Shown here: in pieces, positions 6,137 to 63,350 of the stretch
Layout: every line of letters starts with the position of its first letter
Numbering within the stretch: the first letter of the stretch is position 1
Assembly (NCBI GenBank): GCA_951406725.2
Contig: OX597821.1
Location: 91,450,001 to 91,514,000, forward strand
Source of the DNA: Octopus vulgaris
Lineage: Eukaryota
DNA length: 64,000 nt
Reading direction: 5' to 3'
Made by a program: the position numbers and the translations under genes
Notes under the pieces: generated by a model
The model's database searches: none
Seen by the model: only the letters and a program-made list of their open reading frames with translations
Told to the model about the DNA's origin: nothing

Positions 6137-6201
<65 letters not shown>

Positions 6202-6206
6202 GCATT

Positions 6207-6241
<35 letters not shown>

Positions 6242-8300: not shown

Positions 8301-8848
8301 AAAATATCACAGTAATGTGATAATATTATGACTGGTGACAGCAGTGCTAGAGTAAGATTAAGTACTGTCTCATTAACAGGATAATAGTATGACTAATTTG
8401 ATAGCAGTACCACAGTAAGATGAAGTAACCTTTTTACATTGATTCTATTTATTCATTAGAATCAGATGGTTGTCTAATCACCAGTGATACTAAAACTCCT
8501 CTGCTCTACTATTAATTTGTTATTTTGTTCCTTGTGTCCCCACCCCCACCATTTCTGGAGTAAAAGGTAGACTGATGAGTGAAAGAAAAGAACCAGAGTG
8601 ATAGGATAAAGAACGTTTCTGCCAGCTCGCTGCCTATAGTGTATTAGTTCTGGCAGAGTGTCAAAACCTAACTTGTGGGCACATATGGCTAAAAGGTTAC
8701 TGCTAAACTACAACCTGCCCCTGCATATGTCAATGCATACACATGCATATGCACAGACACAAACACATATAAACACACATATGCATACACTTAAAATCAT
8801 TGAAATATTGACTGTGAATTTGTGAGCGTATTATATATATACATATAT

Positions 8849-9063
8849 AAGGCAAGCTGACAGAACCGTTAGCATGCCGGGCGAAATGCGTAGCCGTATT
8901 TTGTCTGTCATTACGTTCCGAGTTCAAATTCCGCCGAGGTCGACTTTGCCTTTCATCCTTTCGGGGTCAATAAATTTAGTACCAGTTACACACTGGGGTC
9001 GATATAATCGACTTAATCCTTGTTTGTCCCTTCTGTGTTTAGCCCCTTGTGGGTAGTAAAGAA
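8849..9063 (+). mobile_element. SINE family B
   Basis: A/B boxes, Meta-like domain, and the tail gccccttgtgggtagtaaagaaa. Confidence 0.9.
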
Positions 9064-9064
9064 A

Positions 9065-9095
<31 letters not shown>

Positions 9096-23632: not shown

Positions 23633-23840
23633 ATGTGACCTCCTGTGTACTGTTGGCAATTTTTTTTTCCTCTGTTTTCCATTTTCTGGATCTTTCCTTC
23701 TCCTATGTTTCCGACGAAGAGCTCCGCTCGAAACGTTAAACCCTCCTTCTTTCCTTCTTTCCTGAGCGTCCAATAATACTATATTTGTTCCACGTCCTCG
23801 CGTTGTTGTGTTTTTTTGTGTTTTCTTGTTTGGATGAACT
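23633..23840 (+). mobile_element. ~205-bp short element with a minimal hammerhead-like motif, ending in (TA)n (copy 1)
   Basis: Starts atgtgacctc; gttt-CCGACGA-a-gagc-tcc-gctc-GAAACGTT-aaac at 23707-23741; copies at 33982 and 48359. Confidence 0.75.
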
Positions 23841-24044
23841 ATATATATATATATATATACACGTACTGTTGGAGATTTCTTTTCCTTCTTTGAAATTTGA
23901 ACTTTTTCCTTTCCAATGAAACATGAAACCCTCTCCTTTTACCAAGTGTCAAGCTAATACATTCTTTGTACATGTTCTCGTGTTGTCCATTAATTTTATC
24001 ATTCATTTTCTTTTATTGATTTTTTTATTTGAATTGACTATATA

Positions 24045-33981: not shown

Positions 33982-35077
<1,096 letters not shown>

Positions 35078-38025: not shown

Positions 38026-39011
38026 CTTTAACATGCCAGACAAAATGCATAGTGGCATTTCATCCATCACTATGTTTTAAGTTCAAATACTTTGCCTTCC
38101 GTTCTTTCAGGGCCAATAAAACAAGTACCAGTTGAGTATGGAGTGTCAACTTGCCCTCTCTCCTGAAATTGCTGGCTTTGTGCCAAAATTTGAAATCAAT
38201 AATATGATATTTTAATTTCTTCAGTCTACGAGTTCTGGATTATTTATTCTCGCCAACATAGTTTCTCTCACTGGAACGAGTTGTCACAACTACCCGTTTT
38301 CTCATCCTTTCATCTCTACCAGTTTCACTTACTGTCTTAATGCTCTCTCTGAAATGTTTTGTAAAACAAATCCATTCACAGAACATCTTGTGACATGTAG
38401 CTCACAATCCATCTCTCGGGCTCTCGCCACTTCCACTCCTCGAACCACTCAACACTCCAATTTACTATATATATAGTTTGGCCTTTCACAATGGACCTAC
38501 TAACTCTGGGTTTAATAGAGAGAAGCGTTCTATGTTTCCCATTCAAATCTACATTCTTTTTGGCCTTTGATACATCCACTTACACACACACACACACACA
38601 CACACATCCGAAAATCTATAATCCTCACACATACGAAAATCAACCAAAATAACCTAGTTACATTTTAACACGTCCTTCCATAATATCCACTTGGATACAC
38701 ACTATGCATACACATACCACACATGCTACACTTTTACACATGTTTGCATTTGTTCTTCACAGCATAAAACAACGCTTTAATACATACGAGTATGCACGTA
38801 AGCATGTGCACTAATCCATACAATACGTGATTAACCATTAAGCACATCATTGCTTTTTTAAAAATCAAATACACGAACATATTAATCACAAATTTTCATT
38901 ACAGTATAACAGACGCATTTTTGTTTCCATGCACATGCACACACAGATCTATAGACAATAAGCATGCACATAAATATGCAGTCACATTCACTCAACACAT
39001 GAAACATCGAT

Positions 39012-39800
39012 AAGGCGACGAGCTGACAGAAACGTAAGCACGCCGGGTGAAATGCTTGCCGGTATTTCGTCTGCCGTTACGTTCTGAGTTCAAATTCCGC
39101 CGAGGTCGACTTTGCCTTTCATCCTTTCGGGGTCGATTAAATAAATACCAGTTACGCACTGGGGTCGATATAATCGACTTAATCCGTTTGTCTGTCCTTG
39201 TTTGTCCTCTCTGTGTTTAGCCCCTTGTGAGTAATAAAGAAATAGGTATTTCCTCTGCCGCTACGTTCTGAGTTCAAATTCCGCCGAGGTCGACTTTGCC
39301 TTTCATCCTTTCGGGGGTCGATTAAATAAATACCAGTTACGCACTGGGGGCGATATAATCGACTTAATCCGTTTGTCTGTCCTTGTTTGTCCTCTATTTG
39401 TGTTTAGCCCCTTGTGAGTAGTGAAGAAATAAGTATTTCCTTTGCCGCTACGTTCTGAGTTCAAATTCCGCCGAGGGCGACTTTGCCTTTCATCCTTTCG
39501 GGGGTCGATTAAATAAATACCAGTTACGCACTGGGGGCGATATAATCGACTTAATCCGTTTGTCTGTCCTTGTTTGTCCTCTCTGTGTTTAGCCCCTTGT
39601 GAGTAATAAAGAAATAGGTATTTCCTCTGCCGCTACGTTCTGAGTTCAAATTCCGCCGAGGGCGACTTTGCCTTTTATCCTTTCGGGGTCGATTAAATAA
39701 GTGCCAGTTATCCACTAGGGTCGATATAATCGACTTAATCTGTTTATCTGTCCTTGTTCGTCCCCTCTGGGTGCAGCTCTTTGTGGGTAGTAAAGAAAAA
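39012..39800 (+). repeat. Tandem array of 4 SINE family B bodies (~185-bp period)
   Basis: tacgttctgagttcaaattccgccgagg...gccccttgtgagta repeated 4 times; only the first copy has the A-box head. Confidence 0.9.
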
Positions 39801-40297
39801 AGGAACATCGATAACTACGCATGCACACTGAATGATAACTCTTTCACATCCCTCGCACACAAACACACACATACACTTACAAGCAATTGCATAGACACGT
39901 CCACCCATTAGCCAGCTTTCCAGACATCGAACTTCTATCACTCAACATATGCACATGCACAAACACACACTGATATAGAAACACACCCACACACATACAA
40001 ACACGCACGCACGCATGCACACACACACAAACACACCATATGCAAAGTACGATGCATACATAGAAACTACTTCACCACATCCCTCATGCATATATACACA
40101 CATGCACCAACGTGCACATGGAAACACATCTGTCCTAATATCTACTCTTATGTCTTAAAACGCTCTATGTAGCCCACCAACCAGATTCTAGTCAGTTGAT
40201 GGCCTGTACGTAGACCATCTCCACATGTCTGTTTTCACAAAGATTGCACTTTTATTTTGCTATTTTCACTTCCATTTAACAATTTCTCTTTATCGTT

Positions 40298-40412
40298 ACG
40301 GGTTCAGTCCCACTGCGTGTCACCTTGGGCAAGTGTCTTCTGCTATAGCCTCGGGCCAACCAAAGCCTTGTGAGTGGATTTGGCAAACGGAAACTGAAAT
40401 AAGACCGTCGTA

Positions 40413-40469
<57 letters not shown>

Positions 40470-40689
40470 TATGTCTGTGTATATGTTTGTGTGCCTGTGT
40501 TTGTCCCCCCAACATCACTTGTCAACTGATGGTGGTATGTTTACGTCCCCGTAACTTAGCGGTTCGGCAAAAGAGACCGATAGAATAAGTACTAGGCTTC
40601 CAAAGAATAAGTCCTGGGGTCGATTTGCTCGATTAAATGCGGTGCTCCAGCATGGCCGCAGTCAAATGACTGAAACAAGTAAAAGAGTA
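40298..40689 (+). mobile_element. SINE family A (5'-truncated)
   Basis: Homology to 881-1282. Confidence 0.85.
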
Positions 40690-41019
40690 ATTTTTCCTCC
40701 TTTTCCACTGTCCAAAGAAGGATAACATCTGAAATGTTACTGCGCTTAATTCTTACCATTTCCCTAAGCAACAAACTTATATTATTGATGGTAAACTTAT
40801 TTCACCTATACATGATTGTGTATGTATGTATGTACGTATGTATGCATGTATGTATGTATGTATGTATGTACCAAGTTGTCAAAAGATTTTTCGTATTTCA
40901 AGCTTTAATTAAAAATTCAAAGAAACTAGATCCGAAAAGCCTTTAATCATCAAAATATAACTCATCATATTTTATTCTCTGATGCCAATAATGCAGAGGG
41001 GACAAACAATGCATAGTGG

Positions 41020-41867
41020 TGTTTCGTCTGTCATTACGTTCTGAGTTCAAATTCCGTTGAGGTCAACTTTGCCTTTCATCCTTTCGGGGGTCGATTAAAT
41101 AAGTGCCAGTTACGTGCTGGGGTCGATGTAATCGACTTAATCCCTTTGTCTGTCCTTGTTTGTCCCCTCTGTGTTTAGCCCCTTGTGGGTAATAAAGAAA
41201 TAGGTATTTCGTCTGCGAGCTGGCAGAATCGTTAGCACGCCGGACGGAATGCTTAGCGGTATTTCGTCTGTCTTCACATTCTGAGTTCAAATTCCGCCGA
41301 GGTCGACTTTGCCTTTCATCCTTTCGGGGGTCGATTAAATAAGTGCCAGTTACGTGCTGGGGTCGATGTAATCGACTTAATCCCTTTGTCTGTCCTTGTT
41401 TGTCCCCTCTGTGTTTAGCCCCTTGTGGGTAATAAAGAAATAGGTATTTCGTCTGCGAGCTGGCAGAATCGTTAGCACGCCGGACGGAATGCTTAGCGGT
41501 ATTTCGTCTGTCTTCACATTCTGAGTTCAAATTCCGCCGAGGTCGACTTTGCCTTTCATCCTTTCGGGGTCGATTAAATAAGTACCAGTTACGCACTGGG
41601 GTCGATATAATCGACTTAATCCGTTTGTCTGTCCTTGTTTGTCCTCTCTGTGTTTAGCCCCTTGTGGGTAGTACAGAAATAGGTATTTCGTCTGCCATTA
41701 CGTTCTGAGTTCAAATTCCGTTGAGGTCAACTTTGCCTTTCATCCTTTCGGGGGTCGATTAAATAAGTGCCAGTTACGTGCTGGGGTCGATGTAATCGAC
41801 TTAATCCCTTTGTCTGTCCTTGTTTGTCCATTCTATGCTTAGCCCCTTGTGGGCAATAAAGAAAGAA
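41020..41867 (+). repeat. Tandem array of 4 SINE family B bodies (periods 240, 240, ~184)
   Basis: ctgagttcaaattccg at 41041, 41281, 41521 and 41705; two units include the A-box head. Confidence 0.9.
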
Positions 41868-42083
41868 ATATAATGGTGTAAAGTCTGAACTGTAACTTTT
41901 GTCGTATAAATTCACACATAACAATAAAATTAAATGGAATAATATTCATGTAGACTTGAGACTAAGTGCAACTTTAAATATAGTTTTAGCCATTCTTAGA
42001 AATATTATGTATTTCTTAAAATAAATCTGGAAAGTATCTTCAAGCTTGTATTAACTGCATTTACTGCTCTATAACTTAATATA

Positions 42084-46889: not shown

Positions 46890-47530
46890 TGTCGACTACA
46901 CAAATAGTAGGGTCAGTTGGGCTCTGTCAGTGAGAAGAACAGTACCATGACGCAATTCACTCTGCCACTGGTGATTGCAACGTTATGTCACCATTCATCT
47001 TCCCACACAGCCTCACACTCAACACGGAGGCCTACATCAAGTGCCTGGAGGAGGTGTTGCTGCCCTGGGTCAAGAGGATGGTAACTGGAAGACCCTATGT
47101 CTGGCAACAGGACTCTGCCCCATGCCACACAAGCAGGAGAACCCAGTCATGGCTGTCACATAATTTTTGCGACCTCATAACATCTGGCCACCTAATTTCT
47201 CAGATTGCTGCACCTTTATTATTGTGTGGGGTGCAGTTGAGCGAGAGAGACCAAGAAAACTTCTTGTAACACCAAAGATGAACTGAAGGCAAGGATTATG
47301 ACAGCATTCACCAACTTAAACAAGGAAACCGTCCAGAAGAGTTGCAGGAGATTCCAAAGTCATCTGGAGGCCATGGTTGAAGCCAACGACGATTTTAATG
47401 AATAAATTTACTCTTTAGTATTTCAGGATATTTTTATGTGATTTTGGTAAATATAATTGTTGAAATGAGATGTCAGTGTTATTTTAATTTTTATGAAACT
47501 TAGACGACAGTTTATTCACGGTATCCTGCG
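46890..47530 (+). pseudogene. Tc1/mariner-superfamily transposase C-terminal remnant with right end
   Basis: ORF 46985-47269 YIKCLEEVLLPWV...YVWQQDSAPCHTSRRTQSWL (second catalytic D), then a frameshifted WPPN-like region and ...CRRFQSHLEAMVEAN. Confidence 0.8.
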
Positions 47531-47536
47531 TAGTCG

Positions 47537-48265
47537 AACACACACGCACATATATACATACATTCACTCGCACGCACGTACACACACACACACATATATA
47601 TATACACACACACGCACACACACATACACACGTACAAACACACACACCAGCACAGATGCCCACATATACCTCCAACAAACAATACTCATACAGATACGCA
47701 CACATTTATACACACATGGGCACAGACACACACACACATACACATACACGCACGTAAGCGCACACACGCACTTACGCCCACACAACTACATGCACATACG
47801 ACACGCACGCACATACATACACACACACACAAATGAACCCACACATACATCCCATACACATGGCACACAATTATGCATACATATATACACACATACGCAC
47901 GTACAAGCACACACGCACACATACACTAAATATAGCACCGTTATTCGCCACATACCCAAACTCTACGCATACACACATACATACACACACACACTACAGA
48001 CAAAACACACACACGATACATATACATACACGCACACACACACATACTTCAAAGTAACAGGACTGACCTGTGGCAGGGACAAAAACACCACTCATTATTC
48101 TACTAGCCCTACAAACTAGCCCTTTGTTTACGGCTACAACCACACACACATACACACACACACATGCACACACAAACACACGTGTCATCATTGCACACAT
48201 ACACACACACACACACGCACACGCAGACCTCCACGCACGCACATATCCACGCTTACACACACACA
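47537..48265. repeat. Degenerate (CA)n low-complexity region
   Basis: Direct reading. Confidence 0.85.
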
Positions 48266-48358
48266 TTCCCCCTCCTACCATTCTGATGTCTTTGACAATA
48301 CTACTCTTCTGTCTTAGAAAACATTCTTCTTCACCCTTTTCCTTCCGGTCTTTCAAAA

Positions 48359-48557
48359 TGTGACCTCGTGTGTGCCGTTGGCGATTTTTTTCCTCTGTCT
48401 TCCCTTCTCTGGATCTTCCCTTCTCCTATGTTTCCGACGAAGAGCTCCGCTCGAAACGTTAAACCCTCCTTCTTCCCTTCTTTCCTGAGCGTCCAATAAT
48501 ACTATATTTGTTCCACGTCCTCTCGTTGTGTTTTTTTGTGCTTTCTTGTTTGGATTA

Positions 48558-48560
<3 letters not shown>
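48359..48560 (+). mobile_element. ~205-bp hammerhead-like element (copy 3)
   Basis: Homologous to 23633-23840; motif at 48430-48464; followed by (TA)n. Confidence 0.75.
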
Positions 48561-48634
<74 letters not shown>

Positions 48635-48636
<2 letters not shown>

Positions 48637-62029: not shown

Positions 62030-63350
62030 ATTTTAGGATGTCACGCAGCGTATTGTTATGGTTACGATGACTTACACACGTTTCCCTTCTCATAGTATAA
62101 GCAGTTGAATTCAGTTAGTTGTTTATTGGTTCAGGTTCAGTAAGAAGTGAGGGGAGGTTGTTTTAAATCTGAAATCTGATTTGTTTGTAAACTTGTCTGG
62201 TTGACCTTGGCTTTACACCAGTTCTTGGCCGAAGTCAGGATTCTATCTAATTAGGTCAAAGTTTGCAAAACTCTTTTGGCAGGCTTCTTTGGGAATTGAA
62301 GTAGATGGGTACTAAATAAGGTTACTTTCGGGTATAGTTCTTGTAATGCATTTTATTTTGGGATGGTTCAGTTCCATGTTATGTTCTTAGTTATTCAGAT
62401 ATGTTTGTGGCTGTGGTATTTATTATACAGGACAGTGGAAATGAAAAGCAATATATATTACGTTAGTTTAGAAAAAGGTCATGTATTTGGGGAGTCCGGG
62501 ACGTGCTTGTATCGCTTCTTTCCCACCTATCTGTGTGTGGGATATTGATTTATCTAGAACGTGTTTTAAATTTCTTACAGGTTTTGGTATGTTTATGTAA
62601 GCATCTTAAGGCCTGTTTCAGCCTTCTATTAAGTAGTTTGTGTCTTGACGTAAAGATTTGATATATTTCTTCTACACATAACTCACATGTATTTCCCCCT
62701 GTTCCACACAGCTTAGCCGTATGAATTACATCCCAACCTGTGGTAAAGCTATGGTTCCTATCTTTAAAGTACCAGATTAATCTACATAAGCTCATGTTGT
62801 CCATCTTATTTCTATCCCTAAATGAATTTAAATGATTTTCAAGAATATGTTTTTGTTCTTTTTAAATTAAGCGAGCTGGCCTCTATTGAGAAGTACGTCC
62901 TTCCCCCAGCTATGAACTTACATCGATATACAAGGTTTTGCATTAAACATCTAAGGTTTAAGGGGCATACTTTATTGCTAACACAATAACATATACTTAA
63001 TTCCTTGTTCTTATTATCTATTGTGCTGTAATTCTTGCTACATGTCTCTGCTGCCATCATTCCTATCGATCTCATAGTTTTCCTAAGCTTTCTATCCATA
63101 GGTGTTTGGGAGCTGCTATTTTTAGCAATTTCTCCGCTCTGTCTTGTGGAGGTAGAGGCTTGTGTTGGAATTGTCTTCCTTCGATCCCTGCTGTATTATT
63201 ATCATCCACTACATTGCGAAATAGGAATAACATTTAGTGGAAACCTATATAGGTCGTCATAACCATAAAAATATGCTGTTTGGCATTGTTAAATAAAAGG
63301 AAATGAATTTTGAGGATGCACCAGTCTCGATATTCTCTATCGTTATAATT
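62030..63350 (-). pseudogene. Penelope-like retroelement 3' part: frameshifted GIY-YIG endonuclease domain plus 3' region
   Basis: ORF 62839-63099 (CYCVSNKVCPLNLRC...VYRC...TYFSIEAS...KR) and ORF 62550-62804 (SLCRLIWYFKD...W...CELCVEE..I...LLNRR...CLH); a partial hammerhead GAAACgtgtGTA lies on the minus strand at ~62073-62084. Confidence 0.8.

Follow-up and report, generated by a model that had tools for sequence, protein, structure and literature searches.

What kind of element a short repeat with a hammerhead-like ribozyme motif belongs to, and whether a motif with a changed core letter still serves that element, are the questions raised by a stretch of 64,000 nt of the octopus genome (C8:91450001-91514000 of 2.8 Gb; hereafter the window). 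A preliminary description had recognized in it three copies of a dispersed element of about 205 bp, carrying what was called an ultra-minimal hammerhead variant.

The repeats in the window and the element they belong to

The three copies are present, all on the plus strand, and each ends in GGAT(G/T)AACT followed by (TA)n, Table 1; a 20-mer of the motif has three matches in the window against 0.00 expected. Their pairwise identity is 90-92%. The third copy does not start at atgtgacctc, as had been stated, and continues upstream to about 47538 through a CA-rich 3' UTR common to the 29 other loci fetched with that stretch; together with this UTR it is 79-81% identical to L064, L296 and L063 over about 1.07-1.10 kb (81% over 1087 bases for L064). 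A more decayed relative suspected behind copy 1 can be aligned there, with weak matches to a 79-copy profile of the same family (family A; nhmmer E 0.011) and to a profile of a distant one (family C; E 0.015), and it has neither the core nor stem II. The motif had further been said to be identical in all copies while the flanks diverged. Its identity stands, as 34 consecutive columns around it are the same in the three-copy alignment, but the flanks have hardly diverged, with 179 of 208 columns identical across all three. Since a run of 34 identical columns arises in 10% of shuffles (p 0.10), we rejected the three-copy identity as proof of conservation.

Rfam gave no match at the gathering score. 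A tRNA-derived SINE, already dismissed in the preliminary description, is ruled out, as ARAGORN, run for whole tRNA genes, found none in the window and the whole unit is explained otherwise. Two more abundant short dispersed repeat families, of about 400 and about 210 bases, occupy 881-1296, 2011-2519, 8830-9074, 39004-41874 and other places in the window. Two broken frames with Cys-rich motifs lie on the minus strand at 62550-63195, and may be remnants of a Hydra/Naiad-like endonuclease of Penelope-like retrotransposons (PLEs); a further broken frame on the plus strand at 46934-47400 contains the motif WQQDSAPCH, and resembles the remnant of a Tc1/mariner-type transposase. Pfam returned nothing for either region.

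The unit is not an independent element of about 205 bp. It is almost certainly the pseudo-LTR (pLTR) of a Neptune-type PLE: a PLE with a matching terminal repeat, for which a search had been suggested, was found, and in its full-length copies the same 205 bases stand on both sides of an ORF encoding RT and GIY-YIG domains. Among 30 loci selected on the 5' part of the ORF, 14 have the unit upstream, running via GGATTAACT-TTATATAC into the 5' UTR and then into the ORF, while 15 of 20 loci extended to 7-7.5 kb have the ORF followed by the unit, and 5 of the 20 have it on both sides. It is because the unit is found upstream, downstream and on both sides of the ORF that we regard it as the pLTR. 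The 3' end of the unit, where reverse transcription is proposed to start, lies within the 5' UTR, some 330 bases ahead of the ATG. At L064 a decayed frame for RT, linker and GIY-YIG is followed without a break by a CA-rich UTR of 1.8 kb, then by the unit and (TA)n, and at L044 the CA-rich stretch is joined to a reading frame. Pfam found no family in the L044 fragment; a search with the peptide of this locus, in which 150 of 10,563 candidates were scored, led to a young relative, family B, of which 12 places were chosen for their long frames. Within the window, tblastn found no PLE ORF of this family.

Table 1 Features of the window with their most probable readings
Feature	Position	Strand	Description
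Copy 1	23633-23840	+	Solo pLTR (3' end) of Neptune-type PLE family A, within a (TA)n array; full-length copies have this sequence next to their ORF
Hammerhead motif of copy 1	23707-23741	+	Minimal type-I motif; stem I 23707-23710/23738-23741; core CCGACGA from 23711; extra A; stem II GAGC/GCTC; GAA-ACGT-T; cleavage predicted, from hammerhead numbering, to follow 23737
Probable older, decayed pLTR of the same lineage	23862-24040	+	Head to tail behind the (TA)n of copy 1; core and stem II missing; weakly matched
Copy 2	33982-34187	+	Solo pLTR
Hammerhead motif of copy 2	34058-34084	+	Stem I lacks its fourth pair
CA-rich 3' UTR of the same PLE	47538-48357	+	Continuous with copy 3; longer 5'-truncated insertion
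Copy 3	48358-48560	+	pLTR; fixed 3' end 100 bases downstream of the predicted cut site
Hammerhead motif of copy 3	48434-48460	+	C4 at 48435; predicted cut after 48460
(TA)n array	48561-48636	+	Adjoins the fixed 3' end of copy 3; target microsatellite

Exact matches of a 28-base anchor in the 3' flank place at least 10,957 copies of family A in the genome, with a large excess of 205-bp solo pLTRs; the element itself has a CA-rich 3' UTR of 2-3 kb. For the statistics below we used the first 90 anchor matches listed, all on C1; the anchor lies outside the motif, and these copies were picked regardless of it. A TA-rich tail, as expected from insertion into microsatellites, follows 78 of the 90. 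At L296:5586-6400 (C3:157.54 Mb) a full-length element is followed by two solo pLTRs about 330 bases apart, each after a (TA)n run, which suggests that the tails of older copies serve as targets for newer ones, so that hammerheads come to lie in tandem. Inverted 5'-truncated pLTR pieces are found beside the 5' ends of insertions at L295, L275, L288, L274 and L324/L325, a head-to-head arrangement typical of PLEs.

The related family B forms head-to-tail arrays with a period of 6159-6209 and a mean identity of 99.7% among 11 chosen copies. Counted from the first ATG that fits, its frames reach 949 aa, and a few copies have a frameshift near the beginning of the ORF. Direct pLTR repeats from tandem or partial-tandem insertion are thus present in both families, at 5 of 20 family A loci and as arrays of 3-4 units in family B, and in both the hammerhead motif lies within the pLTR, on the sense strand. 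Three young family B arrays (C10:97803001-97830000, C16:15978001-15998000 and C3:155077001-155097000; period about 6.2 kb, identity 99.5% or more) have intact or nearly intact 949-aa ORFs, and are candidates for an active PLE. The 949-aa protein has RT motifs and a C-X4-C-X2-C linker before a C-terminal GIY-YIG domain of CCHH type, with two Cys inside the domain and the His residues after it. Its match to RVT_1 in Pfam is weak (E 0.0018, below the cut-off); the top ones of its 822 homologues carry PF00078, PF26215 and PF01541. By eye, its thumb resembles that of Neptune1_Ap and its linker has the length of that of Neptune1_Nv, unlike the Poseidon and Nematis rows in the supplement of PMC8557442. 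The linker (CX2-5CxxC) and the CCHH pattern point to a Neptune-type element, although both are also found in Nematis, and the choice of Neptune over Nematis follows the by-eye comparison. Compared with the published Neptune clade (Craig et al. 2021, PMC8557442), we see no structural difference: a single ORF with RT, CX2-5CxxC linker and C-terminal CCHH GIY-YIG, pLTRs from tandem insertion, a hammerhead in the pLTR and microsatellite targets are common to both, to which octopus family A adds its 2-3 kb CA-rich 3' UTR and its many 205-bp solos. The motif had no match in the text of the supplement of that paper. A third, distant and likewise apparently Neptune-type family, family C (e.g. L061:5386-5413 and L316-L345), has 16,659 exact pattern matches and an ORF 66% identical to that of family B.

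Build, conservation and history of the hammerhead motif

The reading of the motif as a minimal type-I hammerhead with U4 changed to C and a palindromic remnant of stem III is borne out by its predicted build and by counts of its pairs. All three window copies have the core CCGACGA in place of CUGANGA, and the extra nucleotide after A9, the G10.1-C11.1 pair, GAAA, the palindromic 15.2-16.2 and the NUH triplet are all present, with a stem II of 4 bp. Stem I, described as gttt/aaac, has this form in copies 1 and 3, whereas in copy 2 it is tttt/aaac, with three pairs. The term ultra-minimal variant overstates the novelty, since the build is that of the published min-HHR of metazoan PLEs (PMC4209133) and U4C has been published in viroids (PMC3088659, PMC9608096). 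As reported in PMC4209133, the min-HHR likewise has a short stem I, the extra nucleotide after A9, G10.1-C11.1, the palindromic 15.2-16.2 and no helix III, occurs mostly in solo copies of truncated PLEs, and is predicted to act as a dimer with low activity. The octopus motif differs in its core, which falls outside the CUGANGA descriptor, and in a shorter stem II (4 bp as against 7-8); among PLE core variants, that paper names U3-A8.

A conservation profile, which had been proposed as a check, gives a graded answer. Between families A and B the motif is identical at 26 of 27 positions against 64 of 95 in the 3' flank (p 0.002). Within family A (the 79 of 90 copies that cover the region) mismatches amount to 3.6% in the motif against 5.2% in the flanks, or 1.0% against 2.1% outside CpG and subfamily columns, and 43 of the 79 keep the 27-mer intact. 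The motif is thus conserved between families, and within family A only modestly above its flanks. Each of the four stem I pairs is held in 74 of 76 family A copies; pair 4 is G-C or G-U in family A and C-G in family C, as counted in part on 12 hand-picked rows. Position 17 is U in 65, C in 6 and A in 5 of the 76 copies, never G, and in family C it is G in 1 of 30; the catalytic G8 and G12 are unchanged between families. The fold of the motif is probably under selection, and its variation follows the rules of a ribozyme. In the predicted fold of the monomer, a helix closing the core (GACG/CGUU) is preferred over the hammerhead.

At two loci, L183 and L184, the motif has a common 21-base deletion between short direct repeats (CTCC), by which one half of stem II is lost along with GAAA and the cut site; it may mark a variant that has spread without its ribozyme, or a deletion that has arisen more than once. 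Further motifs resembling hammerheads, in which stem II is longer and the core canonical, are found in the flanks at L189:-740, L002:-262, L206:+2138, L193:-1300 and L274:-2805, and one with a CCGAAGA core at L021:-2582; these probably belong to other PLE families.

The changed core letter is common but not universal. Genome-wide, exact 27-mers number 5,866 with C4 and 2,513 with U4, compared to 198 with the mirror CpG decay CCAACGA, and in the 90-copy set position 4 is C in 63, T in 19 and A in 1, with 7 uncovered. U4 is linked to one flank letter (17 of 19 copies against 1 of 59, p 5e-14). Since mirror decays are so few and U4 copies have flank letters of their own, we rejected mere CpG decay of C4 as their origin, and consider them mostly true subfamilies. 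C4 is found in the main subfamilies and in the youngest intact tandem arrays; in family B it is held by 96 of the first 100 copies listed of 1,542. One family B element with a long open frame, C1:93329423-93335351, has the canonical U4 in both pLTRs, and is a natural revertant. Contigs from sequencing runs labelled organisms A-D have both C and T at position 4, with T at about 18-27% of depth, which is not copy number.

The U4 subfamilies, mostly sisters of the C4 ones, look older: their private substitutions amount to 2.3% against 1.2% (p 0.004, biased by the smaller sample) and their CpG decay to 16% against 12%. A tree of pLTRs with position 4 masked (20 of the 79 family A rows hand-picked, three short family B rows dropped, family C as outgroup) forms a ladder from the U4 subfamilies through the main C4, the C17 and intermediate (B2) copies to family B; its terminal branches are longest among the U4 subfamilies and have almost no length in B. 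Branch lengths and ladder shape suggest that U4 changed to C4, followed by U17 to C17 and then by the stem I mismatch, a U-U at pair 2 present in 20 of 20 family B copies. Rooting gives no preference for this direction: with family C in the pLTR tree, the midpoint root falls near B and C4 rows as a single clade are not rejected (p-AU 0.56). An unrooted tree of pLTR plus 5' UTR has one U4/C4 split, and the ORF tree contains one U4-linked ORF only, on a long branch. Family C followed another path. By hand count of the first 100 copies listed, 96 have A6U (CUGUNGA) and 97 keep U4, with all four letters at position 7. With U4C in the A/B lineage and A6U in family C, two lineages have thus fixed different core changes.

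How the short copies may have been made

The 3' end of the copies is fixed, and their 5' ends are not random. In the 90-copy set, 75 end at GGATTAACT, followed by (TA)n, and 55 begin in a zone of 17 bases at -86..-70 (5' positions are counted from C3); two extend beyond -95, one of them through a spurious CA-repeat alignment. The predicted cut site is spanned by 86 of the 90, and one ends at it, in line with chance (0.44). In full-length copies the letters that follow the fixed 3' end are TTATATA. The 5' boundary is common to the U4, C4 and C17 subfamilies, and a homologous boundary, CACCATG/CGCCATG, is used in 2 of 9 true family B copies and in several of 30 copies of family C.

We propose that target-primed reverse transcription is the likely route by which the element inserts into (TA)n microsatellites. 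Its endonuclease would nick the (TA)n, and UUAUAUA in the RNA would pair with the nicked target. Synthesis would likely begin at an internal site of the RNA, some 100 bases downstream of the hammerhead, and end by run-off where the RNA has its fixed 5' end, some 80 bases upstream of the motif. The zone of piled-up 5' ends would then be the transcription start inside the pLTR, the template RNA would be uncut, and the hammerhead would be weak, acting only as a dimer and/or with the assistance of protein. Such weakness would explain how substitutions in the core and stems (U4C, later U17C and the stem I U-U, and A6U in the distant family) became fixed even though selection went on acting on the remainder of the motif. 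That the copies were made from uncut RNA is likely, and we are fairly confident in the mechanism as a whole, which we derive from the distribution of ends in the sequence.

Several of its steps have counterparts in other PLEs. PAc, a Poseidon element of Anolis carolinensis (Frangieh et al. 2024, PMC11167929), also has AT-rich targets and begins reverse transcription inside the RNA, downstream of the hammerhead, at 111-118 bases into the ORF and 85-92 past the cut site; uncut RNA is its dominant substrate, and cleavage was seen only with the protein. It differs in belonging to another clade, in its canonical core and in having its start sites in the ORF, where those of the octopus element would lie in the 5' UTR. 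In Drosophila Penelope, transcripts begin within the pLTR, upstream of the hammerhead; the start site precedes by 46 bases an intron whose end lies at the hammerhead (PMC2377424; PMC4209133).

The run-off reading has difficulties of its own. Of the nine true family B copies, unlike those of family A, 7 extend beyond -200 and only 2 end at the boundary, so that run-off from the first pLTR cannot account for everything; and the boundary lies in an AT/GT patch, which could favour microhomology joins to (TA)n. One could also speculate that the boundary is a hot spot of truncation, where cDNA of the 3' pLTR stalls, or anneals to (TA)n or (TG)n, on reaching the first AT-rich patch (AAAATGTG), which lies above a long pyrimidine tract. 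Many junctions indeed share 1-4 letters with the flanking TA or TG repeat, and minor clusters of ends occur at other TA-like patches (TATG at -7, TGGAT at -24). Longer cDNAs would, however, meet many CA and TA patches, yet 2 of 90 copies pass -95; several ends at -82..-86 include TCTTTC or TTC, with no homology, and the site used in families B and C collects ends although it is not AT-rich. We consider such a hot spot rather unlikely.

Still less probable to us is that the short copies are a self-propagating, non-autonomous element, in effect a PLE-dependent SINE, with its own promoter and 5' boundary, copied in trans by the Neptune protein. The boundary is very sharp, there is one real long copy among the 90 of family A against 7 of 9 in true family B, and solos cluster head to tail, as with the two extra solos at L296; but flank letters of solo subfamilies recur in full-length copies, the homologous boundary is used independently by several subfamilies and by families B and C, and in the pLTR tree a single ladder runs up to family B, which is autonomous. 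A non-LTR retrozyme is ruled out. The metazoan non-LTR retrozymes (bioRxiv 10.64898/2026.07.22.740005) are similar in being non-coding, pLTR-related, short hammerhead-bearing repeats, but they are tandem hammerhead units, whereas the window copies are dispersed monomers, letter for letter the pLTR of an autonomous, coding element.

Cleavage and what the motif may be for

Run-off copying of uncut RNA leads back to the question of whether the motif still cuts. As the changed core letter is also kept by the youngest intact relatives, the motif is likely weakened, and we lean towards a ribozyme that is weak or assisted by protein. Hammerheads in PLE pLTRs, their solo copies and a low activity of their dimers have been published (PMC4209133; PMC6765202; PMC6155905), and the role of the PLE hammerhead is called unclear in PMC8557442. 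The closest parallel for the core change is in viroids, where the U4C hammerheads of peach latent mosaic viroid and CtaHVd-LR1 have lower activity in vitro but still allow cleavage and infectivity (PMC3088659, PMC9608096); there the change is rare and sits in an extended hammerhead that makes tertiary contacts, while in the octopus retrotransposon lineage it is the majority state, in a minimal hammerhead without helix III.

It is possible, if on the doubtful side, that the motif no longer cuts in the C4 and A6U families, and is kept as a binding or folding element for the RT, or as promoter DNA, being a ribozyme by descent. The youngest family combines U4C with the stem I mismatch in all 20 copies, family C has A6U in 96 of its first 100 listed, and no excess of copies ends at the cut site. 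Moreover, C4 lies in a CpG, where the commonest mutation restores U4, as it has in both pLTRs of an intact family B element, yet C4 stayed; and the anole PLE inserts in vitro with no need of cleavage (PMC11167929). On the other hand, the free position 7, the absence of G17 from 76 family A copies and its single occurrence in 30 of family C, the compensated pair 4 of stem I and the constancy of G8 and G12 across families all argue against a loss of cleavage, as does the cleavage by U4C hammerheads of viroids (PMC3088659, PMC9608096). That the ribozyme is efficient we judge to be quite improbable.

More tentatively, one lineage may have lost catalytic features stepwise (U4C, U17C, stem I U-U) and stayed active, with a distant family of 16,659 copies doing likewise via A6U, since insertion would use the uncut RNA as its template. 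The motif would now be mainly switched by protein or non-cutting, and the 205-bp solos would be the exact span from transcription start to internal priming site; we hold this broader account to be possible rather than probable.

Minimal hammerheads of PLEs and rare U4C variants of viroids are already known; for fixation of U4C or A6U in an amplifying PLE family we found no report in the literature searched, which did not take in Lunse et al. 2017 or the supplements of PMC4209133. The element of the window itself is ordinary repeat debris of a known class. Tens of thousands of PLE motifs escape descriptors based on CUGANGA. Lunse et al. (2017) reportedly list some 150,000 variants linked to PLEs. 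The octopus genome holds a graded natural series on near-identical scaffolds, made up of U4, U4C, U4C combined with a disrupted stem I in a young element that is intact, and A6U, along with an intact protein that could be used to test it. If the lineage did trade away catalysis, this would be a natural series for asking what the hammerheads of PLEs are for.
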